DNA from: Chloroflexota bacterium
GTDB taxonomy: Bacteria; Chloroflexota; Dehalococcoidia; JACQUO01
Direction: 5' to 3'
Length of the DNA: 64,000 nt
Assembly (NCBI GenBank): GCA_016210205.1
Contig: JACQUO010000029.1
Coordinates: 11,197-75,196, forward strand
This document shows positions 1 through 29,400 of this stretch, piece after piece. Made by a program: the position numbers and the translations under genes. The notes beneath the pieces were generated by a model. That model was given only the letters and a program-made list of their open reading frames with translations, was not told where the DNA came from and searched no databases. Positions within the stretch are counted from its first letter, which is position 1. Each line of letters starts with the position of its first letter.

Positions 1-114
1 CTGCACCAGAACGAGCACGCCGCCGGCCGGGACCTGACGGCGGCGCTGCGGGATGCCCCCCACGGCGAGGAGGTGCTGCAGGACCTGCCCATCGCGGGCG
101 AGCTGGGGGACTAG
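1..114 (+). CDS. 3' end of an unidentified protein-coding gene (partial, enters from the left edge)
   Basis: The frame is open from position 1 with GC3-rich codons (ctg cac cag aac gag cac gcc ...). It ends at TAG 112-114 and is followed by a hairpin terminator. No family was recognised from the 37 residues. Confidence 0.4.
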   Translation: MHQNEHAAGRDLTAALRDAPHGEEVLQDLPIAGELGD

Positions 115-191
115 GGGAGCGAGACCCGGGGCGGCGCGGCCTAGACGCCCACCCACGGCGCAAGCCAGCCACATCCGCCCCAGGACGCGAA

Positions 192-222
192 AGAGGCCCC
201 CGAGGGGGGGCCTCTCTGTTTT
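192..222 (+). terminator. Rho-independent terminator-like hairpin
   Basis: agaggccccc / gag / gggggcctct forms a 10-bp GC stem, followed by ctgtttt. It lies between the left-edge gene and the displaced dnaN tail copy. Confidence 0.6.
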
Positions 223-235
223 GGGCTTAATGTCT

Positions 236-258
236 ACCACTGCACGAACATGGGCATG
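236..258 (-). repeat. Displaced exact copy of the dnaN 3' terminus (att-like direct repeat, copy 1)
   Basis: accactgcacgaacatgggcatg is identical to 2942-2964. Read on the minus strand it gives MPMFVQW plus a TAG stop (cta 234-236). It marks the boundary between GC-rich DNA on the left and AT-rich DNA on the right. Confidence 0.8.
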
Positions 259-469
259 TTATTCAAGCCAGAGCGTTAACGATGACTGCGGGCTGGGTTT
301 CTGTAATCAGATTTCATCGAGCCTTGAACCTTTCAGACAACAAGCGTTCTGCTCCCAGCCTCGGGTAAAAGTTTGACGCTACAAATCATACTCCGCACGT
401 CCGCTTAATTCAATTGCTGCCTCGTATACGTGGAACAATAGTCATTAGGTAAAGGACATCCTTAATCCT

Positions 470-2278
470 TTATTGTGCCATTTCTACAGCTTTATAGATA
501 CAATTTCTTAAGCATTCAGGAACGTCACTCGGATCTGAAAGGTTCTTTGCTAAGGCCAAACCCAATTTGGGTTTATTTGGTATACCTGATTCCCTCAGTA
601 ATTTGTCAACGAACCCTTGTGGAGGAGCCCTCAGTGAAGCAACCTTTTCTGGCGTCCAGCCATCATATTTCGTCTCCGCACGCAATACTTTAGCCCAGAC
701 TTCATCTGAAAACGAATACTCAAAATGGTCCGGGCAGACGAAATATACTTGCTGCGGAATATTAAAGCCAGCCCTATTCAGAGCATCTTGAGTAAGATGA
801 CGGGCAACTCCTTTGTTGCGAGTGGTGTCCTGGTCAACTGCGAACACGACTTTCCTTTTATGTTTATGTAAGAACTTGGCAAATACAACGGCGCCGTAAT
901 TGTCATATGAATTAACGAGCCTTACCCCTTTTGTATATGTGTCCTGACCGGTACACAGCTTGAATATTATCGGAATCGCGGTTTCTTCTGTTTTCCCTTC
1001 GAACAATAGAAAACAGCGTTCGTAAAACATGAGCGCATGATGCAACCCTAATCCATCTCCGAGACGATGCAAAAAGAATTCCACCTCTTCAAGATTGGTC
1101 GAATCAGGAACGAAAGACTCGACACTCGACTTAGTCCTGGACGGGTCAAGAGCATAATAGTTGAGTTTCTCAACAGGCACCCGATTTATTAGATTCACGG
1201 AATGCGTACAAATAACGATCTGGACCAACGGGCTGACAAATCCCTGGATGATGTCAAACAACTTTCTCTGGGATTGATAGTCAAGGGACGTATCGGGTTC
1301 ATCAAGTGCCAGAATCAGAGGTCTCGCTCCTTCGTTTTGACGCTTTTTCAAGATTTCCGAACTCCATTCATACACGGCCAATGTGATGTGCTTCTGAACG
1401 CCTGTGCCCCGTTTTTTAAGCAATATAGGGCGGTCATTTTGGTCTCGGAGTCGCAATTCTATTGTCTTGAAACCGGATTCGAAATTGAATTCCGTGTCGA
1501 CTGAGACGGATTTCACTTCAGGCCGATACTTCCGGACAAACGGGTTCAATGCAGCAGCTTCTTCGCGGAGTTTGGTGGTGATATTCTCCTGGACTTTTAA
1601 CAAGTGCCCTGAGTTTTCTGGTTTTTCGATCTCTTGCTTAAATATGGTACGGAGAACTCCGCTCACTACTGATGTTGGATCGCTTGCACTAGAAAACCGC
1701 GTAAATTCGGGTAATAGAGGCTTTATCGAGTTAGGGAAAGCAACTGTTCCTTGGGTCGTTGGTTGCCCATCCTTGTATTTTCTTATGGCGTCGACAAACG
1801 GCTGCTTGGACTGGCCTCCGATTCCTAATCCCAATTCACCCGCGAGGGTTCTCAAGGTGGCAATGTTCTCTGATTCAAAATCGATGCGCAGACGTTCATC
1901 GACTGGAACCTGACCAACTACGAGGATTTTGGGTTGTTCACCAGAGTTGAAACTCTTTTGAATATGTAGGCAGTCATCCTCCAAAGGTGCGGACTTTGTT
2001 ACTTCTGTCTTCTCGGTCTCCGTAGGCCTGAACTTGCCTTCGATTAGCATATATTGTTCGTGCGGTATCACGTCATGTTCGTCAGGCGTGCTGCCGGGCA
2101 TGTACGAGAAGTCTTCTGTGTCGGGTTGCCTGCTACCCAGAAGGATTTCCAATGCATCTAGAGTTGCGGTCTTCCCACCGTCGTTCTCGCCAATCAAGAC
2201 ACTCAAATCGCGGAATTGGATCCATTCCGTTTGATAGAGCGACCTGAAATGTGTTACTCGAATACTAGTCAACTGCAT
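470..2278 (-). CDS. OLD-family ATP-dependent nuclease (ABC-type ATPase fused to Toprim)
   Basis: 602-aa ORF. ATPase motifs: Walker A GENDGGKT, signature-like RGTGVQKH, Walker B LILALDEPDTSLD, H-loop CTHS. C-terminal Toprim motifs: LLFEGKTEE and FAVDQD. The gene and its flanks (about 259-2436) are clearly AT-richer than the rest of the window. Confidence 0.85.
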   Translation of the reverse strand: MQLTSIRVTHFRSLYQTEWIQFRDLSVLIGENDGGKTATLDALEILLGSRQPDTEDFSYMPGSTPDEHDVIPHEQYMLIEGKFRPTETEKTEVTKSAPLEDDCLHIQKSFNSGEQPKILVVGQVPVDERLRIDFESENIATLRTLAGELGLGIGGQSKQPFVDAIRKYKDGQPTTQGTVAFPNSIKPLLPEFTRFSSASDPTSVVSGVLRTIFKQEIEKPENSGHLLKVQENITTKLREEAAALNPFVRKYRPEVKSVSVDTEFNFESGFKTIELRLRDQNDRPILLKKRGTGVQKHITLAVYEWSSEILKKRQNEGARPLILALDEPDTSLDYQSQRKLFDIIQGFVSPLVQIVICTHSVNLINRVPVEKLNYYALDPSRTKSSVESFVPDSTNLEEVEFFLHRLGDGLGLHHALMFYERCFLLFEGKTEETAIPIIFKLCTGQDTYTKGVRLVNSYDNYGAVVFAKFLHKHKRKVVFAVDQDTTRNKGVARHLTQDALNRAGFNIPQQVYFVCPDHFEYSFSDEVWAKVLRAETKYDGWTPEKVASLRAPPQGFVDKLLRESGIPNKPKLGLALAKNLSDPSDVPECLRNCIYKAVEMAQ

Positions 2279-2439
2279 TGTTTAACCTCAAATAGATCGC
2301 AGTTGTATTGGCAAAAGCTATCCAGAAGCTTGATGGTTCAGCTTCGAGGACAAGCGCCTTGCTTTGAAAGCCCTTCAGGTCAAAGTGGTAGTCGGCAAAT
2401 CTGGGGTAAAGCTATCTGGCTTAATTCCAGATTTTAACG

Positions 2440-2498
2440 CTACCACTGGACGAACACGGGCATGACCCCAGGGACGAAGTTGCCCACCCCCACGGGCC
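2440..2498 (-). repeat. Degenerate copy of the dnaN 3' terminus (copy 2)
   Basis: 2442-2498 aligns to 2942-2998 at an offset of exactly 500 bp, with 51/57 identical by hand alignment. It translates as GPVGVGNFVPGVMPVFVQW-TAG, against RPVGVDNFVHVVMPMFVQW-TGA in the functional gene. Confidence 0.75.
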
Positions 2499-2721
2499 TA
2501 CCCGTAAAACTCCTCTTCTGCTATCCCGCTCCCCTCGATAATGCTCCTCAGGGTGCCCAGTGGCAGTTGCTTCCCTTTGTGGTAGGGAACAACCACCTGC
2601 TTCCCCGTATCGCTGTCGCGCCACTTCTGATGACTGCCCCGCTGGGAGACGAGTATGAAACCGTGCCGTTGGAGAATCTCGTGACTTGGTCAGCCCTGAG
2701 CCGAGGCAACTTTGGTGCCAT
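2498..2721 (-). pseudogene. hicA: HicA-family mRNA interferase toxin, disrupted by a 1-nt frameshift
   Basis: The ATG at 2719-2721 overlaps the hicB stop (ATGA). Frame 1 reads MAPKLPRLRADQVTR and then becomes nonsense. The adjacent frame reads (E)ILQRHGFILVSQRGSHQKWRDSDTGKQVVVPYHKGKQLPLGTLRSIIEGSGIAEEEFYG-stop, a canonical HicA core. The span is 224 nt, not a multiple of 3, and a missing base near 2676-2678 would restore the frame. Confidence 0.7.
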
Positions 2722-2927
2722 CAGGCGGGCACTTCCACCTCGAAGACTCTCCCTTCAGGTCTGATATTGACAGCGGACGGCTCTAGATAGAGGGCTATAG
2801 CCTCTTTGATGTTCTCTAGGGCCTCTTCTTCCGTATCGCCCGCGCTGGTGCACCCCGGCAGCTCAGGACAGTAGACAGCATAGCTACCTACTTCTGCATC
2901 GTATTCAACGACCACTCGTAGCTTCAT
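2721..2927 (-). CDS. hicB: HicB-like antitoxin (short, N-terminal HicB fold only)
   Basis: 68 aa: MKLRVVVEYDAEVGSYAVYCPELPGCTSAGDTEEEALENIKEAIALYLE. This is typical of the HicB/UPF0150 family. Its stop overlaps the hicA start. Confidence 0.8.
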   Translation of the reverse strand: MKLRVVVEYDAEVGSYAVYCPELPGCTSAGDTEEEALENIKEAIALYLEPSAVNIRPEGRVFEVEVPA

Positions 2928-2939
2928 TTGACCCTCCCC

Positions 2940-4073
2940 TCACCACTGCACGAACATGGGCATGACCACATGGACGAAGTTGTCCACGCCCACGGGCCGG
3001 ATGACCCCGGGGCTGGTGGGCGAGGTGGTCTCCAGGGCCACCTGCTCGCTGTCCAGGACCGAGAGCACCTCGGTGAGATACTTGGCGTTGAAGGCGATTT
3101 TGCCCGCCTCGCCGGTCACCGCGGCGTCCAGCTCCCCCAGGTTCTCGCCCAGCTCCTCGGCCCGGGCGGAGACGGCCAGCTTCCCGGGGCCCAGCTCGCC
3201 CGCCGGGGTCACCTGCAGGCGGATGATGCCCGAGCCGTCTCGGGCGAAGATGGCGGCGGCCTTGGTGGCCCGCAGGAACTCGGCCCGGTTCACCACGGCC
3301 CGGCTCTGGGAGGACTGGGGGATGAGCTGGCCGTAGTTGGGGAAGGTGCCCTGAACCAGCTGGGAGACCATCTCCGCATTCTTCAGCTTGAAGAGCGCCT
3401 GGCTGCGGGCGGCATTCACCGTGACCTGCACCGGCTCCTCCTGGCCGTCCAGGAGGCGGTTCAGCTCCTGCAGGGAGCGGGCGGGGATAATCACGGCCAC
3501 CTTCTCCGCCACGGGCTGGTCTAAGGCCAGCTTGTGCACCGAGAGGCGGAAGCCGTCGGCGGCGGCCAGGGTGACGGTGGAGCCTTCGAAGCTGGCCTGG
3601 ACGCCGGTGAGCACGGGGCGGGACTCGTCGGTGGCGGCGGCGAAGGCCACCTGGTCGATGGCGGTATGCAGGGCGTCGCCGCCCACGGGAATGGCCACCC
3701 CCTCCCCGATGGTGGGGATGGGGGGGAAGTCCGCGGCGGCCTGCCCGGTGATTTTGGCCTCGTTGCGGCCGCAGGCGAGGTGGATGGTGTGGCTGCGAAG
3801 GGGCTGGCTCAGGTCCATGCGCTCGTTGGGCAGGGAGGAGACCAGGTCCGTGAGAAGCCGGGCGGGCACAGTGGTGGTGCCCTCCTCCTCCACCTTGGCC
3901 CCAATCCAGCAGGTGATGGCAATCTCCAGGTTGGTGGCCGACAGCTTCAGACGGCCCCCATCGGTGGCCAGGAGCACATTGTTGGTGATGGGCAAAGTCG
4001 TGCGGGTGGCCACCGCCCTCCCCACGATGCCGAGTCCCCGACTCAGGTTCTCCTGCAGGCACGAAAGTTTCAT
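2940..4073 (-). CDS. dnaN: DNA polymerase III beta subunit (sliding clamp)
   Basis: 377 aa, with length and sequence typical of a beta clamp (MKLSCLQENLSRGL..., ...TSPTSPGVIRPV...). An AGGGGGAGAG RBS lies upstream. Confidence 0.95.
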   Translation of the reverse strand: MKLSCLQENLSRGLGIVGRAVATRTTLPITNNVLLATDGGRLKLSATNLEIAITCWIGAKVEEEGTTTVPARLLTDLVSSLPNERMDLSQPLRSHTIHLACGRNEAKITGQAAADFPPIPTIGEGVAIPVGGDALHTAIDQVAFAAATDESRPVLTGVQASFEGSTVTLAAADGFRLSVHKLALDQPVAEKVAVIIPARSLQELNRLLDGQEEPVQVTVNAARSQALFKLKNAEMVSQLVQGTFPNYGQLIPQSSQSRAVVNRAEFLRATKAAAIFARDGSGIIRLQVTPAGELGPGKLAVSARAEELGENLGELDAAVTGEAGKIAFNAKYLTEVLSVLDSEQVALETTSPTSPGVIRPVGVDNFVHVVMPMFVQW

Positions 4074-4123
4074 CTCTCCCCCTTAAAAAGCCTTCGGCGG
4101 CGTTCTGGAAATTTTGTTGCCCC

Positions 4124-4152
4124 AGTATACAGCACCCCACAGGGCGGGACAA
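4124..4152 (-). promoter_or_regulatory. Putative sigma70-type promoter for dnaN
   Basis: The minus strand reads TTGTCC - 17 nt - TATACT, about 45 nt upstream of the dnaN ATG, inside the hemL-dnaN spacer. Confidence 0.45.
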
Positions 4153-4173
4153 GGAGATGAGCCGCGGTTTCGC

Positions 4174-5457
4174 TCAGAGGACAGAGAGCGCGCGGGCGGC
4201 GGCGGCGATGGTAGCCTCCACATCCTGCTCGGTGTGGGCCAGGGAGAGGAACCAGGCCTCGAACTGGGAGGGCGGGAGATAGACCCCGGCCTCCAGCATG
4301 GCCCGGAAGAAAGCGCCGTAGCGGGCAGTGTCGCAGCGCAGGGCGGAGTTGTAGTCGGTGACCTCGCCGGGGGTGAAGAAGAGGGTGAGGACGGAGCCGG
4401 CGCGGACGATGCGGGCGGGGATTTTGGCCTGGCGGCAGGCCGCGGCCAGGCCGGCCTCCAGGGTGCGGCCCAGGGCCTCCAGCTTCTCGTAGGCGCTCGG
4501 GGACTTGAGGGCCTCCAGGGTGGCGATGCCCGCGGCCATGGCCAGGGGGTTGCCGGAGAGCGTCCCCGCCTGATACACCGGCCCCTGGGGGGCGACTCGC
4601 TCCATGATGTCCCGCCGTCCGCCGTAGGCCCCCACGGGGAGGCCGCCGCCGATAATTTTCCCCAGGCAGGTGAGGTCGGGCTTTATCTGATAGTGTCCTT
4701 GCGCGCCGCCCCAGCCGAGGCGGAAGCCGGTGATGACCTCGTCGAAGATAAGCAGAGCGCCGTGCTCCGCCGTCAGTCGCCGCAGGCCCGGGAGGAAGCC
4801 CGGCCGGGGGAGAACCACCCCCATGTTGCCCGCCACCGGCTCCACGATGACGGCGGCGATGTCGCCCCCCTGGGCCTGGAAGATGCGCTCCAGGGCGCCC
4901 AGGTCGTTGTAGGGGGCCACGATGGTGTTCTGGGCATAGGAGGCGGGGACGCCGGGGCTGCCGGGGATGCCCAAAGTCGCCACGCCGGAGCCGGCCTCAG
5001 CTAATAGGCCATCGGAGTGGCCGTGGTAGCAGCCGGCGAACTTCACGATGAGGTCGCGCCCGGTGTAGCCCCGGGCCAGGCGCAGGGCGCTCATGGCGGC
5101 CTCGGTGCCGGAGGAGACGAAGCGCACCAGCTCCACCGAGGGCAGGGCCTCGCAGATGAGCTTGGCCAGGGTCGTCTCCTGGAGGCAGGGCGCGCCGAAG
5201 GTGGTGCCGTCCCGCAGCGCCTCCTGGATGGCCCGGGCCACCTTGGGGTGGGCGTGGCCCAAAATCAGGGGGCCCCAGGAACAGACATAGTCGATGAGCT
5301 CGTTGCCGTCCACATCGAAGATGCGGGCGCCGGCCCCGCGGCGGATGACCAGGGGCTCGCCGCCCACGGCCCCAAAGGCGCGCACGGGGCTGCTCACCCC
5401 GCCGGGTATGTAGCGCTGGGCCTCGGCGAAGAGCTTGCGGGAGAGGTCTCGCTTCAC
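4174..5457 (-). CDS. hemL: Glutamate-1-semialdehyde 2,1-aminomutase
   Basis: 427 aa class-III aminotransferase. The N-terminus ...[16 protein letters not shown]... and the PLP-lysine context CLGKIIGGG are typical of HemL. Confidence 0.95.
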
Positions 5458-5807
5458 GGGGCGGGCTTGGCCCCGTCCACGGGAAAGCCGCGCTCGAGCC
5501 AGGCGTCCATGCCGCCCTGGAGGTTGTAGAGCCGCTTGCGCCCGGTGGAGGCGGCCATCTCCGCCGCCAGGGCCGAGCGCACTCCCGCGGCGCAGACGAA
5601 GATGATGGGCTGGGTCTGGCTCAGCTCCCGGGAGCGGGAAAGCACATCGTCCACGGGGATGTGGCGGGCGCCGGCGATGACGCCCGTCTCCGCCAGCTCC
5701 TTGGCGGTGCGCACATCCACCACCTGGACGCCGCCCCGGTCTATCATATTCCGGGCCCGCACCACTCCGATGCGGCGGAAGGGCTCTTTGGGTTCGCTTC
5801 TGGGCAT
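5454..5807 (-). CDS. Rhodanese-domain sulfurtransferase
   Basis: 117 aa, single rhodanese domain with active-site loop FVCAAGVRS. Its stop overlaps the hemL start by 4 bp. Confidence 0.85.
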
Positions 5808-5844
5808 GGGGTGCTCCTCAATCTAGCTCGCTCAATGCCAACTT

Positions 5845-6008
5845 GTCATTCTGAGACCGCCGTAGGCGGACGAAGAATCTACAGCGATGTTCCCTCACTA
5901 ACCAACCATCCCCCTGGCACCCTTCCTTTTCCGGAAGGGGGGAGAAGAGGGAACTGGGGGACACCCCCAGACCCCCGCCAGAGAGGCACAGCCCCTCTGG
6001 GCTCCCCT
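5845..6008 (+). repeat. GC-rich composite palindromic repeat element (copy R1)
   Basis: A series of hairpin modules: gtcattctgagaccgccgtaggcggacgaagaatc; ccttttccggaagggg; gggggacaccccc; ccagagagg..cccctctgg. The core recurs at 7730-7800, 13860-13925, 19538-19592 and, inverted, at 29860-29900. Confidence 0.6.
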
Positions 6009-6009
6009 T

Positions 6010-6402
6010 TTACACGGCCTGGAGGTTTGCTATCAGTTCCTTGACCTTTCCCTCTATTATATCCCGAACCTCGCGGTATTTCCCGCTCGGCTGGCCCACG
6101 GGGTCCTCGAGGTCCCACTCCTCGGCGTCGGCGCGCGAGGCGGGGCAGGCGTCCAGGCCGCAGAGGGTCACCACCCGCTCGGCGTGGTCCAGCACCTCCC
6201 AGTCCAGGCCCTTGGGGCGGTGGCGGGAGATGTCGATGCCCCGCTCCCGCATGGCGGCGATGGCCCCTGGGGCCACGGCGGCGGCGGGGCTGCTGCCGGC
6301 GGACACCGCCCGCCAGCCGGGGGGCGCGAGATGGTTGAAGAAGCCCTCCGCCATCTGGGAGCGGCAGGAGTTGCCGATGCAGACGAAAAGCACGCGCCTC
6401 AT
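6010..6402 (-). CDS. arsC: Arsenate reductase, thioredoxin-coupled LMW-PTP type
   Basis: 130 aa. It has the P-loop CIGNSCRSQMAEG and the downstream Cys pair TLCGLDAC, as in the pI258 ArsC family. Its ATG overlaps the stop of the upstream 333-aa gene (ATGA). Confidence 0.85.
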   Translation of the reverse strand: MRRVLFVCIGNSCRSQMAEGFFNHLAPPGWRAVSAGSSPAAAVAPGAIAAMRERGIDISRHRPKGLDWEVLDHAERVVTLCGLDACPASRADAEEWDLEDPVGQPSGKYREVRDIIEGKVKELIANLQAV

Positions 6403-7400
6403 GGTTGGGCTTTCTTCCTACGGGGCGGCCCTAAATAGAGGTGTGCTTTTTCTTCACAGTGCTTCCGGACCATTTTCACCCACGGCTCGTACCAGTACCA
6501 AGTCTTTCCAAGTGGGGTGCCAAACCCTTTTCCCGGGTTTTTGGCATCCATGCCTTTCCATAGCTGGGCATGATGGTAGTAGTTGAACTGCCCATAGCCC
6601 TCATCCTCCATTAATTTGATTATCTGGTTGGGGAGGAACTTAGGGCGTTCCACATCTTTGAGAACCCAGTATTGTTTGTCTATCTCCTTTGCGGCATCGG
6701 AGTTGGGGTCAACAAACTCGATAACCTTATCCGCATGGCCCTTTCGGTTGGCCGTCTTTCTGGTGAATAGGAGCCGGTAGGCGTATTTAGGGCTATTGAA
6801 CTCCTCCTCCGAAAGTTTGTTGTCGAACTCCGCGACGTAGGCTTTCAGCCGCGGCGGCACATCCTCCTCACTCGGTATCGCCTCAATCTGTTCCCGCGAC
6901 AGCTCCATGAACTGCAAACTATACGTGAGTTGCTCGTCGAGGCCATACTTAGACCCGAACAACTGTCTGATATACATGTTGTAGTTGAGGGCGCATGCCT
7001 GGTAGCGTCCGCTGAGCCAGTTGTCCAGGTTAAGCGTCATCTGATGCTCGATCTCATGGCGCAGACCTATGAGAAACATGAGGTTGTTCTTGGCGTATCT
7101 ATCCACAGGACAGGCGCCGTCATTCAAACACCGTTCAAGCTCCCAATACTTGTAGGCTCCATGTTTGGTGCGGTGGAAACGCCGTCGTATTGGTCCCGGG
7201 TAGAAGTATCGGTACTCAATCCTCTTTTGTCGGTAATATGCATGGAGAAGATATGTCCAGGCGATGACCATTAGGATGATGAAAGTTTCCGATTTGAATT
7301 TCACCAGCGGGTTGTTGAAGACCTGAACCGCTGACAAAACCGCTTCCCGCGACTTGGCCAGTAGCTCTTGGCGCCACGAGAAAAGGCGGCGCTTTCCCAT
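6399..7400 (-). CDS. Hypothetical protein with an RHEIEH (Rx4H / HExxH) motif; possible HEPN-like or DUF3644-like protein
   Basis: 333-aa ORF with a GGAGG RBS 9 nt upstream. It is AT-richer than its neighbours. The N-terminal helix AVLSAVQVFNNPLVKFKSETFIILMVIAWTYLLHAYY resembles what I recall of DUF3644 (unverified). The motif GLRHEIEHQ is encoded at 7041-7067. Function is unknown. Confidence 0.8.
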   Translation of the reverse strand: MGKRRLFSWRQELLAKSREAVLSAVQVFNNPLVKFKSETFIILMVIAWTYLLHAYYRQKRIEYRYFYPGPIRRRFHRTKHGAYKYWELERCLNDGACPVDRYAKNNLMFLIGLRHEIEHQMTLNLDNWLSGRYQACALNYNMYIRQLFGSKYGLDEQLTYSLQFMELSREQIEAIPSEEDVPPRLKAYVAEFDNKLSEEEFNSPKYAYRLLFTRKTANRKGHADKVIEFVDPNSDAAKEIDKQYWVLKDVERPKFLPNQIIKLMEDEGYGQFNYYHHAQLWKGMDAKNPGKGFGTPLGKTWYWYEPWVKMVRKHCEEKAHLYLGPPRRKKAQP

Positions 7401-7436
7401 AGCTACACCTCCGTCTCCACCATCGTATCGCCACCC

Positions 7437-7637
7437 CTACCGGAACCGGCCCTGGCGCGTCAGGAAGTCGCCCACGGCCAGGCGCACCACGGCGCCCCGG
7501 CTCCAGCGCTGGCGGTAGGCCTGGGTGAACTCCCGGGCCAGCTGCTCCAGGGCCTCCACCTGCTCCTCCTCCAGATAGATGGTGAGGGGCCGCAGCTTCT
7601 CTTCCTGGTGGGATGCTCCGGGCTGTGCTTTCGCCAT
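7437..7637 (-). CDS. Ribbon-helix-helix (CopG/Arc-like) small DNA-binding protein
   Basis: 66 aa from an internal ATG with an AGGAGA RBS: MAKAQPGASHQEEKLRPLTIYLEEEQVEALEQLAREF... The pattern is a beta-strand followed by a helix. The longer 145-aa ORF version runs into repeat DNA and was not used. Confidence 0.7.
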   Translation of the reverse strand: MAKAQPGASHQEEKLRPLTIYLEEEQVEALEQLAREFTQAYRQRWSRGAVVRLAVGDFLTRQGRFR

Positions 7638-7685
7638 GGGTTGTCTCCTGTCGTGGGTTCTTGATGGGTTGAGGCTTGGGCTGAC

Positions 7686-7877
7686 ATTATACCTCACCCC
7701 CTGTGTCCCCCTCTCCTGCAGGAGAGGGGGAGAAGAAGGAGAGTCGGGGGACACCCCCGGACCCCCGCCAGAGGGGAGGTTCCCCTCTGGACTCCCCTTC
7801 GTGGCTGCGAGGGGGATATTACCGTAGCCTGGGGGACACCCCCGAACCCCTGGCAGGGGGCTTGTCCCCTGCACCCC
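7686..7877 (+). repeat. GC-rich composite palindromic repeat element (copy R2, two tandem modules)
   Basis: Contains a perfect hairpin, ccccctctcc-tgca-ggagaggggg (7707-7730), followed by gggggacaccccc, ccagagggg-aggtt-cccctctgg, and a second gggggacaccccc...gcagggg-cttgt-cccctgc module. It is in the same orientation as R1. Confidence 0.6.
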
Positions 7878-8888
7878 TTATTCCTTGAGCCAGCGGGCGG
7901 CCTCTTTGGCGTGGTAGGTGATAATCATATCCGCTCCAGCCCTTTTTATGGCGGTGAGGGCCTCGAGGGTGGCCAGGCGCTCGTCCAGCCAGCCTTTGGC
8001 TGCGGCGGCCTTGAGCATGGCATATTCGCCGCTGACATTGTAGGCGGCCAGGGGGTGGTCGCAGGCGGCCCGCACCCGGGCGATGATGTCCAAATAGGGC
8101 AAGGCGGGCTTGACCATGACCATGTCCGCCCCCTCGGCGAGGTCCTGGGCCACCTCCCGCAGGGCCTCGCGGGCGTTGGCGGGGTCCATCTGGTAGCCGC
8201 GCCGGTCCCCGAACTGGGGGGCGGAGCCGGCGGCCTCGCGGAAGGGGCCGAAGAAGGCGGAGGCATACTTGGCGGCGTAGGACATGATGGGGGTTGCGGC
8301 GAAGCCGCGCTCGTCCAGGGCGGCGCGGAGGGCCGCCACCCGGCCGTCCATCATGTCCGAGGGGGCCACGATGTCGGCCCCGGCCTCGGCGTGGCTGAGG
8401 GCGGTCTGGGCCAGGAGCGGCAGGGTCTGGTCGTTGTCCACCTCGCCGTCCACCACGACGCCGCAGTGCCCGTGGGAGGTGTACTCGCAGAGGCAGATAT
8501 CGGTGATGACCAGGAGGTCGGGGACGGCCTTCTTGATGGCCCGCACCGCCCGCTGGACGATGCCCTGGGCGGCGTAGGCCCCGGAGCCGACCTCGTCCTT
8601 GGACTCGGGGAGGCCGAAGAGGAGCACGGCGGGGATGCCCAGAGCGGCCACCTCCGCGGCTTCTTGGGCCAGGGCGTCGGGGGAGAGGTGGTAGCAGCCG
8701 GGCAGGGAGGGTATCTCCCGCCGGAGGCGGCGGCCGGGGACGGCGAAGAGGGGGTAGATGAAGTGGGCGGCGGAAACGTCTGTCTCGCGCACCAGGCGGC
8801 GCAGGGCGGGGGTGCGGCGCAGTCGCCGCAGGCGGGCGGCGGGGAAGGGGGACTGGGCCTCGGCCTTGCTCTCTCTTAGGGTATCCAC
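7878..8888 (-). CDS. hemB: Porphobilinogen synthase (delta-aminolevulinate dehydratase)
   Basis: 336 aa, collinear with the ALAD family (..FIYPLF.., ..[14 protein letters not shown].., ..[11 protein letters not shown].., ..[10 protein letters not shown]..). Confidence 0.95.
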
Positions 8889-8892
8889 TATA

Positions 8893-10446
8893 TCATTCCC
8901 TCCCCGCTTTTTTCTCCCGATAGTATTCCCCCAGCGCCGCCACCAGCCCCGGTATGGTGTGCTCGGCGGCCACCACCTCCGCCCGCAGGCCGGCCTCCCG
9001 GGCCGCCTGGGCCGTCACCGGCCCGATGCAGGCGATGACGGGCCGCTCCAGCAGGGCCAGGTCGCCGTCCAGCAGGGACAGCAGGCCCGCCACGGTGGAG
9101 GCGCTGGTGAAGGTGATGGCATCGAGGTCGCCCCGCCCCAACAGCTCCCGGACCATCTCCTGGGAGCCAGGGGCGGGGACGGTGCGGTAGGCGACCACCT
9201 CGGTCACCTCCACACCCAGGCCCCGCAGGCCCTGGGCCAGTTCCGGGGGCACGGCCTCAGCCCGGGGCAGGAGCGCCCGCTGGCCCGCCAGACCCTGGCC
9301 CCGGAAGGACGCCAGCAGCCCCTGGGCCTGGAAGTCGGCGGGCACCAGGTCGGCCCGGAGACCCCGCTGGGCCAGGGCCTCGGCGGTGGCGGGGCCGATG
9401 GCGGCGAGCTTGGCCCCGGCCAGGACGCGGGCGTCGCCCCCGCGCTGGCCCAAGCGGCGGCAGAAGGCGGCCACCCCGTTGACGCTGGTGAAGATGACCC
9501 ACTGGAAGTCTCGGATGTCCGCGAGGGCCTGGTCCAAGGCCGCGGTGTCGGCAGGGCCTTGAATCTCAATGGCGGGCAGCTCCACCGGCTCGGCCCCCTC
9601 GGCGGCCAGCAGGGCGGAGAGCCGCCCCGCCTGGGCCCGGGCGCGGGTGACCAGGATACGCCGTCCGAAGAGGGGCCGGCTATCGAACCAGCGCAGCCTG
9701 TCCCGTAGGGTCACCACCTCCCCCACCACGATGACCGCGGGCGGGGCGGGCTGTTTGGCCTGTAGCTTCACCAGGATGTCGCCCAGGGTGCCGGTGACGG
9801 TCTCCTGGCGGGGGGTGGTGCCCTGGCCGATGACGGCGATGGGCGTCTGAGGCGGCCGTCCCCGGCGGAGGAGCTCGCCCACGATGCTGGATAAGTTTTC
9901 CACTCCCATTAAGAAAACCAGGGTGCCGGGGGCGGCCGCCAGAGCCCCCCAGTCGATTTGGGATGACGGCTTGGTGGGGTCTTCGTGGCCGGTGATGGCC
10001 GAGAAAGACGCGGCCAGCCCCCGATGGGTCACGGGGATGCCGGCGTAGGCGGGCACCGCCACCGCCGAGGTGACGCCGGGGATAATCTCGAAGGGGATGC
10101 CAGCGGCCACCAGGGCTTCCGCCTCCTCGCCGCCGCGCCCGAAGACGAAGGGGTCGCCTCCCTTGAGGCGGGTCACCAGCTTGCCCTCGCGGGCCTTGGC
10201 CACCAGCAGGGCGTTTATCTCCTCCTGGGACAGGGTGTGGTGGGAGGAGGCTTTGCCCACATAGATGAGCTCTGCCCCCGGCCTGGCCCGGGCCAGGAGC
10301 GGCTCGGGGATGAGGCGGTCGTAGATGATGACATCGGCCCGGCGCAGCCCCTCCAGCCCCTTGACCGTGATGAGGCCCGGGTCGCCGGGCCCGGCCCCGA
10401 TGAGCAGGACCTTGCCCTGGCCCGAATCCGCTTCGGGGCTGCTCAT
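8893..10446 (-). CDS. cobA-hemD: Bifunctional uroporphyrinogen-III C-methyltransferase / uroporphyrinogen-III synthase
   Basis: 517 aa. The N-terminal half is SUMT-like ([18 protein letters not shown]..., [13 protein letters not shown]). The C-terminal half is HemD-like ([19 protein letters not shown]...). Confidence 0.9.
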
Positions 10447-11348
10447 GCCTGGTGGCCCTCCAGGATTTGCTGGCCCCCCATCTGGAGGATGCGGCGGGCC
10501 AGCTCTTGGCCCAGGGCCTCGGCCTCCTGACGCTGGCCGTTAGCCGCCAGGCGCAGCAGATGCCGTCCGTCGGGGCTGGCCACCAGGCCCTCCAGGTGGA
10601 GCGTGTTGCCCTCGATGCGCGCCAGGGCGGCGATGGGCACCTGGCAGCCTCCACCCAGGCCCTGGAGGAAGGCCCGCTCGGCGGTGACGGCAGCGCGGGA
10701 TGGCCCGTGGTCGATGGCCGCAACCACCTCTGCGGTCTCTTTGTCTTCCTCGCGAATCTCCACGGCCATGGCCCCCTGGCCGACGGCAGGGAGGCAGATT
10801 TGCGGGTCGAGGTATTGGGTGATTTCAGCCTGCCGTCCCAGGCGCTCCAGGCCCGCCGCGGCCAGGACGATGGCGTCGAACTCGCCTCGGGCGGCTCGCC
10901 GCAGGCGGGTGTCCACATTGCCGCGCAGGTCTCGGGTGACCAGGTCGGGGCGGTAGGCCCGGAGCTGGGCCACCCGGCGCGGGCTGCCCGTGCCCACGCT
11001 GGCCCCCTGGGGGAGCTTATCCAGAGTCAAGCTCGCGGGGCAGATGAGGGCGTCCCGGGTCTCGCCCCGCTCCACGATGGCCCCCAGGGTCAGCCCAGGG
11101 GGGAGCTGGCCTGGCATATCCTTGAGGCTGTGCACCGCCAGGTCGATTTCCCCCTCCAACAGGGCGGACTCCAGCTCCTTGACGAAGACGCCCCGCCCGC
11201 CGATGCGGCTCAAGGAGACGGCCTTGGCCTTGTCGCCGGCGGTCTTGACCAGCTTGAGGGTAAACTCTCGGCCGGGATGGGCCTGCCGCAGCAGAGCCTG
11301 AACCTGATGGGTCTGTTGGAGGGCCAACGGGCTGTCCCGGGTGCCCAT
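10443..11348 (-). CDS. hemC: Hydroxymethylbilane synthase (porphobilinogen deaminase)
   Basis: 301 aa. GTRDSPLALQQT..., SLKDMP and GTGSPRR are typical of HemC. There is a 4-bp overlap with the downstream gene. Confidence 0.95.
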   Translation of the reverse strand: MGTRDSPLALQQTHQVQALLRQAHPGREFTLKLVKTAGDKAKAVSLSRIGGRGVFVKELESALLEGEIDLAVHSLKDMPGQLPPGLTLGAIVERGETRDALICPASLTLDKLPQGASVGTGSPRRVAQLRAYRPDLVTRDLRGNVDTRLRRAARGEFDAIVLAAAGLERLGRQAEITQYLDPQICLPAVGQGAMAVEIREEDKETAEVVAAIDHGPSRAAVTAERAFLQGLGGGCQVPIAALARIEGNTLHLEGLVASPDGRHLLRLAANGQRQEAEALGQELARRILQMGGQQILEGHQA

Positions 11349-11366
11349 GACGATGCTTTTGATGGC

Positions 11367-12011
11367 TCACCGGCCCTTGGCCGGCGACTCCTGCAGGAGC
11401 CGGGCCCAGAGATATTCCGCCGCCTCTTTCTCCGCCCCGCGCAAGGCCAGGGCCTCCAGCTCCGGGGTGAGGGCCTCCTGCCAGCGCTCGGGGGGGATGT
11501 GCACCCGGTTCTGGCGCAGTTCATCCCGCACCGCGGAGATGAGAGCCAGGAGGTGCTCATAGCCCGCGGGGAAGCGCGCCTCCAGCTCCACGCGCAGCCT
11601 CTTGGCCAGGGCGGGGCTTCTTCCCCCCGTGGAGATGGCCACCAGGAGGTCGCCCCGCCTCACCACGGAGGGGACGATGAAGCTGCAAAGCCGGGGGTTG
11701 TCGGCCACATTGGCCAGGATGCCCTGCTCCTGGGCCTCCTGGGACACCGCCTCGTTGACGGTAGGCTCATCGGTGGCGGCCATGACCAGGAAGGCGCCCT
11801 GGAGGTCCCCGGGGCGGTACTCGCGCTGGTGGGCTACGATGCCGCCGTCCCTGGCCAGACGCTGCAGACCCGGGCAGAGCTTGGGGGCGATGACGGTCAC
11901 CAGGGCGCCCGCCTCCAGGAGGGAGCGAGCCTTGCGCTCGGCCACCACCCCACCGCCGACGACTATGCCCCGGCGGCCCTGCAAATCCAGAAAGGCCGGG
12001 TAGTAGGGCAT
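11367..12011 (-). CDS. sirC: Precorrin-2 dehydrogenase / sirohydrochlorin ferrochelatase (siroheme synthase N-terminal type)
   Basis: 214 aa. YPAFLDLQGRRGIVVGGGVVAERK (Rossmann fold) and ISTGGRSPALAKRLR are typical of CysG-N/SirC/Met8. Confidence 0.85.
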   Translation of the reverse strand: MPYYPAFLDLQGRRGIVVGGGVVAERKARSLLEAGALVTVIAPKLCPGLQRLARDGGIVAHQREYRPGDLQGAFLVMAATDEPTVNEAVSQEAQEQGILANVADNPRLCSFIVPSVVRRGDLLVAISTGGRSPALAKRLRVELEARFPAGYEHLLALISAVRDELRQNRVHIPPERWQEALTPELEALALRGAEKEAAEYLWARLLQESPAKGR

Positions 12012-12020
12012 CCTGGCTCC

Positions 12021-12998
12021 TCAAGTGAAATATGATACCCGCTGCTTCTTGTATTCTTTAGTGCTGAAGAGCAGGAGGTAGTCCTTCAGGCCTATCTTCT
12101 CGGCCATGGTGGCGGCCAAGGCGTGGCACTCCTTCCGAGTGCGGGCGTGAATCATAGTATAAACCCCGTAGGGCCAGTCCGGGTAGGTGGGACGCTGGTA
12201 GGCATGGGTGACCTGGGGGAAGGCCGCCAGGGCCTGGCCCAGCTCCTCCACGCGCGCGGGGTCGGCGCGCCAGCAGACCATGGCGTTGGCGGCGAAGCCA
12301 GCCTCGCGGTGGTAGAGGACCGCCCCGAAACGGCGCATGAGACCCCGCTCCCTGAGGCCCCGGGCCTGGGCCAGCAGGGCTTTCTCGGACAGGCCCAACT
12401 GTTGGGCCAGGGGCAGGAAGGGGCGGCTGGCCACGGGCAAGGACTGCTGGAGGGCTTGAACTAAAGCTATATCCCCCTCGTTTAAGGCGCTGGGGGCGCT
12501 GGGAACAGGGGAAGAAGGAGCCGCCTTGGGGGTCTGGCTGTCCCCGGTCATATCGAAGAAGACCCCCAGCTTGAACTGGCGCAGGGCGGGAAGATACAGG
12601 GCGGATTCTGCCTCCACCTCCCGGGCCAGGCGGTGGGCCGTGGCCTCGGGGTCCTCCCCCGGGGGCACGGTTAGGGTGAACCAGAGGTTGTAGGTGTGAT
12701 TGCGCCGGTAGTTGTGGCTGACGCCGGGGTGCTGGCTGATGCGCCCCGCGGCGGCGTCAATGCGCTTCGGGGGCAGGCGCAGGGCCACCAGGGTGGCGCG
12801 ATAGCCCAGGCGGCGGCTGTCGAAGATGGCGTTTATCTGGCGCAGAACCTGGCCCTCCTGCAAGGCCCGCACCCGGGCCATGACCTCCTCCTCGGGTACG
12901 CCCAGGCGCGCCCCTAGCTCGGCGTAGGGCTGCGACACCAGGGGGAAGTCCCCCTGGAGGAGGTTGAGGAGCTGGCGGTCGGTGTCGTCAAGATTCAT
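12021..12998 (-). CDS. Fused AsnC/Lrp-like siroheme decarboxylase (AhbA/AhbB or NirDL-like)
   Basis: 325 aa with two tandem Lrp/AsnC-like halves (DRQLLNLLQGDFPL..., DIALVQALQQSLPV...). This matches the siroheme decarboxylases of the alternative heme pathway, and the gene sits next to sirC and hemC. Confidence 0.75.
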   Translation of the reverse strand: MNLDDTDRQLLNLLQGDFPLVSQPYAELGARLGVPEEEVMARVRALQEGQVLRQINAIFDSRRLGYRATLVALRLPPKRIDAAAGRISQHPGVSHNYRRNHTYNLWFTLTVPPGEDPEATAHRLAREVEAESALYLPALRQFKLGVFFDMTGDSQTPKAAPSSPVPSAPSALNEGDIALVQALQQSLPVASRPFLPLAQQLGLSEKALLAQARGLRERGLMRRFGAVLYHREAGFAANAMVCWRADPARVEELGQALAAFPQVTHAYQRPTYPDWPYGVYTMIHARTRKECHALAATMAEKIGLKDYLLLFSTKEYKKQRVSYFT

Positions 12999-25459: not shown

Positions 25460-26047
25460 TCAATCCACATCAGGCTGGATGATGGAGCTGGGCGATGCCA
25501 ACCCCATCCGTCGCTTCCTCCTGGGCTCTGAAACTCGCCTGGCTATTTCGCTCAACACCAGCCCAAGCAACATCAGGACGACTCCCAGGACCACCAAAAT
25601 GTCGCCCATACTGAAGACCCTTGGGAACGGAGAACGAAGGGAAAGGATGTCCGAAAGAAACCAGAGGCGTATTTGGGACTTCTCCAATAGCATAATCGTG
25701 GTCTGGGGGACGACATCTCCGGGCGCAAGCCCCGCTATCCGGTCGCCGAGCCCCGCGTTCATTACTGCCTCGGGAGTTGTGGGCATGAACCCACCATTGG
25801 CCAGAATGGCTGCCAAGTTCAGGATAATGCCAACGCCAAATATCAAAACAGCCGGGTTTCTGCGATTTATCGCCAGGAAGGCAAGGAGCAGCGCATAGGA
25901 AGCTACTAGGCCTGCTGGCCGCAGGTCTGCCCCCAGCACCGAGGTGACCAGGTAGCTGACCGTAACCTGGACGAACAAGGCTATGGGCGCGATAAACAGA
26001 TACCTGAGCTTCACCTGAGGGAAGTTGCTCACTATGGAATGCCTCAC
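25460..26047 (-). CDS. Polytopic membrane protein, DUF5317-like (recollection, unverified)
   Basis: 195 aa with five or six hydrophobic segments and the motif ANGGFMPTTPEAV. Confidence 0.6.
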   Translation of the reverse strand: MRHSIVSNFPQVKLRYLFIAPIALFVQVTVSYLVTSVLGADLRPAGLVASYALLLAFLAINRRNPAVLIFGVGIILNLAAILANGGFMPTTPEAVMNAGLGDRIAGLAPGDVVPQTTIMLLEKSQIRLWFLSDILSLRSPFPRVFSMGDILVVLGVVLMLLGLVLSEIARRVSEPRRKRRMGLASPSSIIQPDVD

Positions 26048-26466
26048 AGCGCTCCTTCACGCTTTTCCTCGTTCAGCGGGATTGGAGCCGCCTCACTAGA
26101 GCCATGCCTCTCCACATTTTCCGAAGGTAGCAGGAAGCACTGAGAAACCCCAGTGCTTCCTCCCCCTTCCGTCTCCCCGGCTCCTACGGGCCAATGTCGA
26201 AGCCATCGGCCTTGGCTGCCATCAGCAGCGCTGACAGGGTCAGCAAGACATAGAGAGCCGTAAAGTACTGGCTTCTCAGCCACCTCATGCCTATCACCCC
26301 CCTTCCGTAGGATGTTCACAAACTACAGGATAGAGGGGGTGGCTGACCAAATCCTCGCCATATCTGGACCTCCGCTAGCGTGAAGCTGGAGGCTCAGACA
26401 GATAACAAAAGATTAGCCCCCCTTCTGGAGGGAGGCTTTCAGCTAGCGCGAGGGATGACCGCCACT

Positions 26467-29400
26467 CTAGCTATGTTTCAAGGATACTTCCAGTATTTCG
26501 TTATAGAGTTGTGCTAGAGTGCTGGAAGGGGACAGCTGTGGGTCATCCTGAAAGAGCTCGCGGTAGCGCTGATACCATTTCAAAGCAGCCGTGGTATCCC
26601 CTATGCGAGTATAGGATTTCATGAGCTCCGCGTAGGTTTCTTCGCGGTAATTGTCTATTCCCACTATGCGTTCCAGGAAGCTTACACTCTTTGCGTAGTC
26701 GCCCCGAGCCGCGTAATAGCCACCCAAGTTGGCTAGCGCATTAATGTGGCGCTGCTCCAAGTTCTTGCGCAACGTTTCGCACCACTCGGAGTAGAATTCT
26801 TCCAGGAACGACCCTCGATAGAGGTTGACAGCTTTTTCTAACAGAGACGCCCTTTTTTCACTCCCGCGGTCCGTCTGGGAAGCCTGGCTGACCAGTTTCT
26901 CAAATTCCTCCGCATCAAACCAGACCTCTCCCTCGGGGCAAAGATAGTACCGCCCTCCTTCCTGCACCAGGCACCCGTCATATAAAGCTCTCCGTAGCCT
27001 GTAGGCCGTGGAATAGAGGGAGGAATGGCTTTGGGGCCCAGCGATATCGGGCCAAAGGGCTTCCAAGACCTGCTCCTTGGTGCCTTGCCGCCGGTGGCTG
27101 AGAAGATAGAAAAACAGCTCTCTGCTCTTCTTGCTCCGCCATTCGAGTTCACTGACTTTTCTGCCGTCCACCAGCACCAGAGACTGGCCCAAGCTGTAAG
27201 CGTCAACCTTGGGCAAAGCCTTTACTTTCTCATTCGGAGCCACCTCGGCAGCTTCTGAATAAGCTCCCTGCGGCTTTTGAACTTTCTGCCATATCTCAGA
27301 GAACCTCCCGTCTCCAACTCGTTTTGATGCTGCATAGCGAATCAGTGAGGGCATCCTGGCAGCATCAGCCACTAGGAAGGCATCATAGCCCACCCCATCG
27401 AGGATTGCCGCGACTTTTATGAGCTCTCGCAGGCACTGGGCAAAGCGCCGGTTCAGGAAAAAGGCATTCGCCAAATGCAGCCTGGCCCAGGCTTCCTTGC
27501 GCTTATTCTTGGAGCCACTGACCAGCGCGACAGACTTGTCAAGAAGCTGGAGAGACCTCTTTCGTTTTCCCTGCCAGCAGTAGAGGGCGCCCAGCCATCC
27601 CAGGTGCAGGCCCTGCTCGTATTTGCTTCCTTTCTCCTCCGCATGGCTGATGGCTTGCTTGATGAGAAGCTCTGCTTCGTCAAACTTGCCTTGGATGCCC
27701 TTGACTGTTCCGAGGCTGCAGGTCACATAGCCCACCAGTCGGGAGTCCATGACTTGTCTCGCTATCTCCAGGCTCTTCTGATAATTGGCTAGAGCCGCCT
27801 CACCATCTCCCATATCCCGGCGCACATCACCAATATTCCACAGCGCCCAGGCCTGAGAGCGCAGGTTGCCGCTCTTCTCGTCGGTATCCACGGCCTCCTT
27901 GAGTAGGGTGAGGGCTTTTACGTAGCTACCCAGCAAGTAGTGAAGATTGCCGAGATTATTGAGAGTCTGGCCCAGTTCACTCAGATTGCCCAGCTTCTGC
28001 CATCCAGCTCTAGACTGTTCCAGATAGCCCATGGCCTTGGGGAAATCCCCTAGCTCGGCGCAAGCCACACCCACGAATTCATTCAGCTTGGAAATGCTGC
28101 TGAGGTCGCCCAGCTTGGTAAAGGAATCCAGCGACTTTTTCCATTCCCTGGCGGCTTTCTCAAACTGTCCGTCTTCATACAAAATAGCTCCCAACTGCCG
28201 GCGGGCTTCCGCTACCAGGCGGAGATGGGAGTCATCGCCCTTTAGCCATTTGAGGGCCCTTTGCACATCCTTAAGGGCTGCCTTGGATTGTCCCGCCAAA
28301 CGCAGAGCGGAGGCCCGCACCAGGGACGCCTGAGCCATCCCAGAGGTTATTCCCTGGAGCTCAAACTCCCCTAACGCCTGAGCAGAAAGGCTGATGGCTT
28401 TGTCCATCTCTCCCAGGCGCATGGCGGCCTGGGCCCGCCAGACCAGCAGTTGGGGTTCCCTCGCGAGGTGCTCTGCGGGAATAACATCCGTCCACCGCGC
28501 CAGGCTCTCCCATCGCCCGGTAGCTGCCAGCTCTTCACCTGTGTGTAATAGAACCCTCAGATATTCCTTCCACCGTTGACACCTTTGGTAGTATTCAAAC
28601 GCCACTTCCCGGTTGCCCCTTTGCTCATAAAACAGGGCGGCTTTCACCATCAGGGACGTGTATTGGTCCTGGGCCTCCATCAGCTTTTTCTGTAGAAAGT
28701 CCTGAAAAAGCTGATGATACCGATAGGTTGAGCCGTCTTCTCCCAGGCGAGACACGAAAACATTCGCGCCCTCTATCTCTCTGAGAATTCGGGCGCTTCC
28801 CTTGGTGCCTAGCAGATAGTCGCAGACTTCCGGCTCGAGCTCAGAGAGAACACTGGTGCCCAGTAGAAACCTTCTCATCCGCTGGGTCTGCTTTAGAAAA
28901 ACCTCATTATTCAGGTAATCGAATAAGTGAGTGCTCTTCACTAGCTTCTGCGGGCCGGGCCGGCCGGTGCCAAGGGCAGAAATCATTAGCTGCAACGCAG
29001 TTACCCAACCCTCGCACTGGTCGTTGAGAAGCTGTGCGTCTTCCTCCCTCAGGGCCTGCCCATATCGCTCCGAGGAGAGCTCACTGGTTTCACCCACCGT
29101 AAACCGCAGGTCCTCGGTAGTGAGAACATAGGCCTGCTGTTGTGAGAGCATTTTGGCTACTGAAGGAAACGGCACGCCGGAGCGACTGGAAACTATCAGT
29201 TGACAGTTGTCGGGAAGCCGCTCGATGAGGTATTCCAGCAGGCTGTTGATAGTCGGGCTAGTTTCAACCTGGTGGTAGTCATCCAGCACCAGGGCAAAGT
29301 ACTCCGGAATGCAGCGGTGGATTTCAGCGGTGAGCAGTCTGACGAGCGCCGGCATTTCCTGCTTGAAATCGGCTACCAGGGCTATCCGCCCCCGAGTCTC

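Follow-up and report, generated by a model that had tools for sequence, protein, structure and literature searches.

The coding end of dnaN as a probable attachment site of large serine recombinase islands in Dehalococcoidia, with a probable fossil array behind one dnaN gene

The ssrA-specific genomic islands of Dehalococcoides carry a CcrB-like serine recombinase, DsiB, on the reverse strand at attL, are marked by 20-bp repeats of the ssrA 3' end and occur in tandem arrays; islands without an integration module are interpreted by the authors as cis-mobilisable (McMurdie et al. 2011, PMC3146451). These islands are the closest precedent for the locus described here, which lies at the end of dnaN, the gene of the DNA polymerase III beta clamp, in a 64,000-nt stretch of DNA from a Chloroflexota bacterium of the class Dehalococcoidia (GenBank assembly GCA_016210205.1, contig JACQUO010000029.1, positions 11,197 to 75,196 of the forward strand; the whole stretch is called the window below). 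In our reading, to which we assign a probability of roughly 80%, the last seven codons of dnaN (MPMFVQW and the stop) serve as the chromosomal attachment site (attB) for large serine recombinase (LSR) islands of one family, which is widespread in Dehalococcoidia, and the window holds a fossil two-island array at this site. The dnaN islands come from the same bacterial class as the ssrA islands and share three features with them: a reverse-strand large serine recombinase beside attL, boundaries marked by a direct repeat of some 20 bp that derives from the 3' end of an essential single-copy gene, and tandem arrays in which some islands have no integration module. However, the target of the ssrA islands is a tmRNA gene, whereas here it is the tail of a protein-coding gene, and the LSR reading frame of the dnaN islands overlaps its target gene in antisense. 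The six-gene integration module of the ssrA islands is absent from the dnaN elements examined for it (loci L079 and L083), the LSRs being likened to DsiB by arrangement only.

Three further systems are useful for comparison. In staphylococci, the serine recombinases of SCCmec/Ccr islands insert their cargo in the last codons of rlmH (orfX) while the gene stays active, and tandem and decayed forms with repeated att scars are common. This system may be taken, by its layout, as the classical analogue; it differs in host, in target gene and in recombinase arrangement (a CcrA/CcrB pair); islands of the SCCmec type are also discussed in PMC3146451. The CIMEs, att-bounded segments lacking an integrase that accrete at the att sites of streptococcal ICEs and IMEs, resemble the segments of the window in that they arise by deletion and tandem accretion at the 3' end of a target gene (concept cited in PMC3146451; for a review see PMC5704250). 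However, CIMEs use tyrosine integrases, and the damage at the window junctions argues against mobility. Finally, a pneumococcal prophage-like element is inserted between dnaN and ychF, its 14-bp attB being intergenic, in the ychF promoter (PMC6375853). It is thus also a mobile element downstream of dnaN, but the coding sequence of dnaN plays no part in the insertion, and the integrase is found at the junction of the prophage. A full-text literature search returned no paper that connects dnaN with a large serine recombinase or reports an att site in its coding end, in agreement with the statement of the original prediction, which was made from the DNA letters of the window, that the dnaN tail is not a well-described insertion site for defence or TA cargo.

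The dnaN gene of the window (2940..4073, minus strand) is full length, encodes 377 aa with all three beta-clamp Pfam domains and keeps the conserved MPMFVQW end, with repeats of its tail at both boundaries of the inserted DNA. A repeat search of the window places the tail at 2940-2964, 2440-2464 and 234-258, all on the minus strand. The functional tail (2940..2998), which ends in TGA, is the proximal copy of a 58-nt duplication. Copy 1 (234..258) reads MPMFVQW and a TAG stop; its 23-mer at 236-258 is identical to 2942-2964 (23/23 nt), which is the longest exact repeat among the copies. Copy 2 (2440..2498) is the longer one: the pair 2442-2498 and 2942-2998 is 89% identical at a spacing of exactly 500, with 51 matches over 59 nt when the stop is included and 51/57 without the stop codon. 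From the junction alignment, it is made up of a 34-nt dnaN arm, the B arm (2465-2498), the dinucleotide CC, and a tail with its TAG stop (2440-2464) that appears to be supplied by the element. Within the whole 64 kb, the 23-mer has three matches at up to three mismatches where shuffled sequences predict none. The positions, the in-frame translations and the contrast between TAG in both displaced copies and TGA in dnaN thus agree with the original prediction, and so does its premise that the repeat is not a generic dispersed sequence, at least within the window. The prediction also read copy 2 in frame correctly, as (G)RPVGVGNFVPGVMPVFVQW followed by a stop, except that the leading GPVGV that it gave should be RPVGV.

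The base composition changes at the same places. The GC fraction is 0.734 in positions 1-233, 0.458 in 259-2439 (segment E1), 0.565 in 2499-2939 (segment E2) and 0.689 in dnaN, so that the AT-rich segment and the GC-rich, host-like DNA to the left of copy 1, both earlier estimated by eye, are borne out by calculation. A GC-rich hairpin with a 10-bp stem followed by a T run (192..215, no strand) is the host terminator that once stood directly behind dnaN, convergent with the upstream Cyt-b5-like gene, this left neighbour being named from the independent Logan contig L081. Copy 2 is both displaced and decaying. Its substitutions D>G, H>P, V>G and M>V hit residues that are conserved in 79 relatives, and the mutations of its dnaN arm are mostly AT>GC, which is the pattern that would be expected of a non-functional relic in a 70%-GC genome.

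E1 carries the marks of an LSR island. Its single intact gene, as had been claimed, is an OLD-family ATPase/TOPRIM nuclease of 602 aa (470..2278, minus strand), in which AAA_15 (1.2e-25) and OLD-like_TOPRIM (1.4e-6) domains lie on one polypeptide. Next to copy 1, the flank at 259..285 (minus strand) aligns with an arm conserved in 11 other distal copies (..GCAT-GG....CA.ACATS followed by CC), which marks it as the left arm derived from the element's own attachment site (attP), or P arm, of the E1 attR; copy 1 itself is the B' half of this attR. At the other edge, an LSR C-terminal relic of 43 codons plus TGA lies at 2334..2465 on the plus strand: positions 2334-2462 translate as WFSFEDKRLALKALQVKVVVGKSGVKLSGLIPDFNATTGRTRA and the stop is at 2463-2465. 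This relic abuts copy 2 and runs in frame, antisense, through it to the TGA in the dnaN-derived arm, as its relatives do. A profile hidden Markov model (HMM) built from 13 LSR C-termini, from which the seven residues antisense to dnaN had been removed, matched this fragment at E=1.5e-9 among 1,499 six-frame fragments of the window, the runner-up standing at E=1.1. By contrast, a tblastn search of the 64-kb window with a full-length LSR gave no significant match; the relic is seen only by the C-terminus profile, and the attL edge holds this 43-codon relic in place of an intact LSR gene. Since copy 2 adjoins the LSR 3' end in the orientation and frame of the family, copy 2 is identified as the attL of E1.

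An intact counterpart of E1 is found on a 188-kb JGI contig (L083). Here dnaN (1191-2321) is followed by a convergent LSR gene (2296-3831, minus strand) that overlaps its last 26 nt, by HNH and unknown genes, by an OLD gene (8001-9809, plus strand), by a tail repeat (9874-9894) and by a further LSR relic. The OLD homologue, P0124, is 72% identical to the window protein and is the last cargo gene of this element. The shared position and orientation of the two OLD genes mean that E1 is best read as an island of the L083 kind. This link was reached by homology search and context, a tblastn search with the OLD protein against the 80 dnaN loci of our survey having returned no match. The claim that the OLD segment is a site-specific insertion which regenerated the dnaN end and left att scars is therefore upheld by the P arm, the LSR relic and the intact L083 element, and the observation that the window has no integrase and that its elements are decayed holds as well, with the integrase class now named as large serine recombinase.

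The OLD protein of the window is probably an anti-phage defence gene product. Its best PADLOC matches are GajA and Old (Old 2.8e-25), and it resembles Class 1 OLD proteins and GajA of Gabija in having an N-terminal ABC-type ATPase and an OLD-like TOPRIM domain. Unlike Gabija, it stands alone: positions 259-2439 contain no further open reading frame (ORF) matching a family, and the GajB partner, a UvrD-like helicase, was not found. A promoter scan detected no consensus promoter upstream of OLD or hicB, a result that is uninformative for this phylum. Directly before OLD, a conserved ORF of 101/102 aa occurs in L082 (7658-7966) and L083 (7657-7962), the two being 66% identical; no Pfam family is recorded for it in the look-up tables, and it is absent from the window and from L086. 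We infer that the 101-aa ORF, which precedes OLD in both L082 and L083, was among the losses in the putative E1 deletion. A separate observation concerns L086, where a 74%-identical OLD homologue lies in an element (2410-12218) that carries Mom, ParB_N and Resolvase genes. This gene set, which resembles that of the Dehalococcoides ssrA-island integration modules, suggests that OLD moves between both island families.

The recombinases themselves are found at the dnaN end of relatives, where the original prediction had advised looking for integrases beside dnaN-tail repeats. In L079, a 572-aa ORF that is convergent with dnaN and overlaps its end contains Resolvase, Recombinase and Zn_ribbon_recom domains, which identify it as a large serine recombinase. 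Homologous genes, convergent with dnaN and adjoining its end, are present in L006, L015, L053, L058, L059, L060, L072, L076, L077 and L078, and C-terminal fragments abut the tail in L003, L027, L038, L039, L041, L051, L054, L055, L065, L068 and L069. A few further loci carry a second LSR subtype that the profile misses. The LSR gene stands at the attL edge in the related elements of L079, L083, L077, L015 and L072, and most of the dnaN-adjacent LSR genes overlap the last 26 nt of dnaN. The last LSR residues (..TTxQTxA) are the antisense of the dnaN tail, and the TGA stop is made by the V/I-M codons of dnaN. The L083 LSR matches the phrog_95 integrase family (1e-100), with SPbeta SprA among its matches to solved structures. 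A scan of IMG/VR with the L083 LSR returned only 29%-identical matches and hence gives no evidence that the islands are catalogued viruses. It was also observed that, relative to the inferred crossover, the stop codon of the LSR falls on the side of the host (dnaN), so that at element-arm junctions the ORF reads on (..TIGQTWGSLSSHVYGYLIPFAFSIR and a stop), for example at 9815-10072 on the minus strand of L083. With its stop in host DNA, the recombinase would have a different C-terminus in the integrated and in the excised state.

How often the site is used was assessed in 80 species-representative loci whose DnaN proteins are 63-70% identical, 79 of which end in the invariant MPMFVQW. A degenerate tail pattern found 26 extra copies among the 79 Dehalococcoidia dnaN loci. 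These are strongly oriented: 24 of the 26 follow dnaN on its own strand, none follows it on the opposite strand, and two are upstream, one of which is an artefact of a run of N. Several loci have three tail copies. In total, about 33 of the 79 loci carry a tail repeat or an LSR C-terminus at the dnaN end, while in 21 loci whose downstream flank covers 3 kb or more the site looks unoccupied. In every relative with a distal copy, the likeness of this copy to dnaN begins at the CC of the proline codon and covers about 21 nt; upstream of CC stands an arm that is unrelated to dnaN and conserved among loci (..GTACGCATGGAAGGACAAACATC followed by CC). Intrinsic terminators lie directly behind dnaN in several unoccupied loci and behind the most distal copy in occupied ones, paralleling the hairpin at 192-215 after copy 1. 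The dnaN tail is thus a recurrent, oriented insertion point with an LSR at the proximal junction and an element arm at the distal junction, and dnaN is always restored. A tRNA or tmRNA gene as the true target was considered and ruled out, the only tRNA of the window being at 31.6 kb.

The recurrence bears on two ways in which the arrangement could have arisen without a site-specific element. First, the end of dnaN could have been duplicated locally in tandem or by slippage, with the foreign genes captured later, as the spacing of exactly 500 bp and the host-like GC of the 58-nt copy would allow. However, this account leaves out the LSR relic, the conserved P arm and the intact homologous element of L083, as well as the recurrence in about 30 other species with identical boundaries, and we regard it as highly improbable for the locus as a whole; for E2 alone, a local duplication could still apply. 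Second, the metagenome-assembled genome (MAG) could be chimeric at the repeated 23-mer. The Logan contig L081 indeed stops in the dnaN tail, at 2967, and 12 of the 80 relatives' contigs end within 400 nt after dnaN. On the other hand, L081, which is 100% identical to window positions 1-2967, reproduces E1 and E2, each of the two displaced copies and the junction at the TGA-type tail exactly; the longest exact repeat, at 23 nt, is below the usual final k-mer sizes; and long contigs of other organisms (L083, 188 kb; L093, 271 kb) show the same architecture. An assembly chimera is therefore given very little weight. The contig ends themselves, including that of L081 inside the tail, would fit assemblies that break where a site is variable or repeated.

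In the mechanism that we propose for the LSR islands, attB would span about 40-50 bp centred on ATG-CC-N-ATG, where CATG CC CATG forms a quasi-palindrome around a non-palindromic CC. Recombination would cross over at this invariant CC of the proline codon; no other block stays invariant between the arms, which diverge, and the third codon positions, which vary. The element would thereby supply a new 21-nt tail, so that dnaN stays intact across what is now attL, and its LSR, convergent with dnaN, would take its own last codons from the antisense of this tail. The host's original tail would be pushed to the far end as attR, just before the host terminator. Applied to the window, copy 1 would be the attR and copy 2 the attL of E1 (259-2439), from which an internal deletion would have taken all but the last 43 LSR codons together with the cargo between the LSR and OLD. 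The ancestral empty site is predicted as the dnaN tail joined to ACATTAAGCCC...

The second segment, E2, is of another kind. Between dnaN and copy 2 lie hicB (2721..2927, minus strand), which encodes a 68-aa antitoxin with a HicB domain (E=2e-11), and hicA (2498..2721, minus strand), a pseudogene of 224 nt whose stop codon directly adjoins copy 2. The frame of hicA is broken near 2685 by a deletion of 1 nt, so that the HicA domain is matched only once the frameshift is repaired (E=6e-18) and the window has no intact HicA ORF beside HicB, as a HicAB type II toxin-antitoxin (TA) pair would have. An intact 225-nt homologue is present in L092, and L081 carries the same frameshifted sequence as the window. 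The prediction had located both genes correctly but presented them as a hicBA cassette, which turns out to be broken. In L089-L095 and L099, representing at least four other lineages, a hicB homologue of 85-87% identity begins 9-44 nt downstream of the dnaN stop, and one of 69% identity follows dnaN in L019. HicB is far more conserved across these lineages than DnaN, which is only 62-65% identical to the window protein in L092-L094. From these sequences, hicBA appears to be a habitual tenant of the dnaN end. Among side observations, hicA is truncated in L094 and not called in L089-L091, and loss of the toxin with retention of the antitoxin seems to be recurrent at this site. In L100, an 85%-identical hicB (about 3950-4207) is found away from dnaN, in a split luciferase-like gene and beside a DDE transposase, with GTTCAGTGGTAG, the end of the dnaN tail, about 50 nt upstream of it.

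The distal junction of E2 differs from those of the LSR islands. In L089/L092, a canonical P-arm attR stands behind hicBA, whereas in the window copy 2 has no element-derived P arm and instead retains 34 nt of dnaN sequence upstream of CC (30/34 identical), unlike all 24 other distal copies. On the 271-kb contig L093, an exact repeat of 35 nt takes in 14 nt of the dnaN arm, and L094 and L099 have no distal tail copy. In relatives with three copies, the middle copies have the form P arm-CC-tail, as canonical integrations predict. A canonical LSR origin of E2 was thus ruled out, since canonical integrations, in whatever order, would not give the middle copy an arm derived from dnaN; the 34-nt arm means that an event outside the LSR crossover parted the dnaN body from the E1 attL. 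Of the original idea of one nested or two successive site-specific insertions, the half concerning the OLD segment therefore stands and that concerning hicBA does not. Likewise, the copies do lie where they would bracket an OLD islet and a hicBA cassette, but they do not enclose two equivalent elements, copy 2 being the attL of the OLD island. The boundary of the long repeat also varies, from -58 in the window to -35 in L093, which favours a route driven by homology over a second site-specific enzyme. E2 would then have arisen by a separate event, without the crossover of the family, that set a new 58-nt dnaN tail and hicBA between the dnaN body and the E1 attL. Three candidate routes may be considered: entry of a small circle by a Campbell-type single crossover, homology-facilitated illegitimate recombination, or a gene-conversion tract. 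In an alternative order, E2 would have come first and made a detached full attB that E1 used later. Decay would have followed in either case, mutating the displaced 58-nt copy and shifting the frame of hicA.

The long repeat also invites the question of whether another recombinase, e.g., a tyrosine integrase with a long identity segment, inserted both segments, the LSR relic being incidental cargo. Long att identity segments are typical of tyrosine-integrase elements at gene 3' ends, the 57-nt similarity of copy 2 resembles such a segment, and the window has no integrase that would decide the matter. However, no tyrosine recombinase was seen next to the dnaN tails of the relatives examined, where LSRs stand in fixed orientation and frame; moreover, the unfixed boundary of the long repeat speaks against this explanation, and the P arm of copy 1 fits the LSR family. 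We consider it very unlikely.

Another question is whether the site is a living cassette platform, in which islets without an LSR but with dnaN-tail repeats are mobilised in trans and expressed by read-through from dnaN, E1 and E2 being still cis-mobilisable. Such a platform would account for the many short, LSR-less islets with canonical junctions in relatives (L017, L020, L025, L037, L075 and L089/L092), whose cargo is mostly co-oriented with dnaN, and for the position of hicB, which starts 12 nt past the dnaN stop with only a ribosome-binding site (RBS) in between. It would also fit the conservation of HicB far above that of DnaN across lineages, and cis-mobilisable islands have been proposed for the analogous ssrA system (PMC3146451). 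In the window, however, the E1 attL no longer adjoins dnaN and has mutated, E2 has no P arm at its distal junction, hicA is frameshifted and no LSR gene lies within 64 kb, while the co-orientation of the cargo could reflect a leading-strand bias near the origin. We therefore consider a platform of this kind improbable here. A more far-reaching proposal is an integron-like serine-recombinase platform, in which mostly promoterless, co-oriented islets would be captured, stacked and exchanged in trans at the 21-nt repeat and driven by the dnaN promoter, with hicBA as a first-position stabiliser and an LSR C-terminus that depends on the state of the element. Its cargo may span defence genes, TA pairs and even heliorhodopsin. 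The many short, co-oriented, LSR-less islets give it some support, and we offer it as a speculation that is unlikely as it stands. A true integron is not indicated: the recombinases of the site are of the serine type, the repeat is a coding tail rather than attC, and none of the loci examined was found to have an IntI beside dnaN. Separately, a heliorhodopsin gene (5562-6362, Pfam E=6e-96) was observed as the sole gene of a 0.9-kb islet between two dnaN-tail copies in L075, a Dehalococcoidales MAG.

Returning to the reading of the dnaN tail as the attB of LSR islands, several points weigh against it. The window contains no LSR gene, and hence no element there is demonstrably mobile. The element-derived tail of copy 2 reads MPVFVQW rather than MPMFVQW, which requires either a later mutation or a tolerated variant. 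The canonical LSR model leaves E2 unexplained. The relaxed tail pattern, which admits up to two mismatches, may include one to three chance matches, e.g., in L022 and L057. There is no close relative and no empty site at the species level, empty sites being seen at the level of the class only: the one identical DnaN record in the databases is that of the source MAG, and the nearest other dnaN is 71% identical. Finally, the crossover dinucleotide CC is inferred from sequence boundaries only. As for the present state of the locus, its sequence suggests that no catalyst of movement is left in the window and that the functional remnants would be dnaN, the intact OLD gene and an orphan HicB.

Other features of the window were recorded in passing. 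A second low-GC islet at 6010-7400 contains an ArsC/LMWPc-like gene (6010-6402) and a DUF3644 protein gene (6399-7400), whose product matches the PADLOC candidate defence family PDC-S19 at 1e-154. This islet is bracketed by a direct repeat (5934-6009 and 7724-7799) of about 76-110 nt and about 75% identity that occurs only twice in the window. Further exact direct repeats of at least 20 nt are present at 33666/34716 and 56800/58064, and a stretch of lower GC (0.54-0.56) extends over 26000-29000.

What is new here is the target gene, the high frequency of its use and the way in which recombinase and target overlap in antisense; the case demonstrates no new principle, and the mechanism is an expected one. 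For the class Dehalococcoidia, the finding adds an attachment site that had not been described before, lies within an essential replication gene and is used very often, being occupied in about 40% of the 79 sampled species-level genomes, and it identifies the recombinase family that uses the site. Occupation of the dnaN end would explain why many MAG contigs break just past dnaN, and the dnaN-tail repeats with the conserved attP arm provide a simple marker for accessory and defence cargo in this uncultured class. The new LSRs, with their short and defined attB, are also offered for genome engineering. In the window itself, an apparently orphan OLD nuclease and a broken toxin-antitoxin pair become, in the reading that we favour, a dated fossil array.

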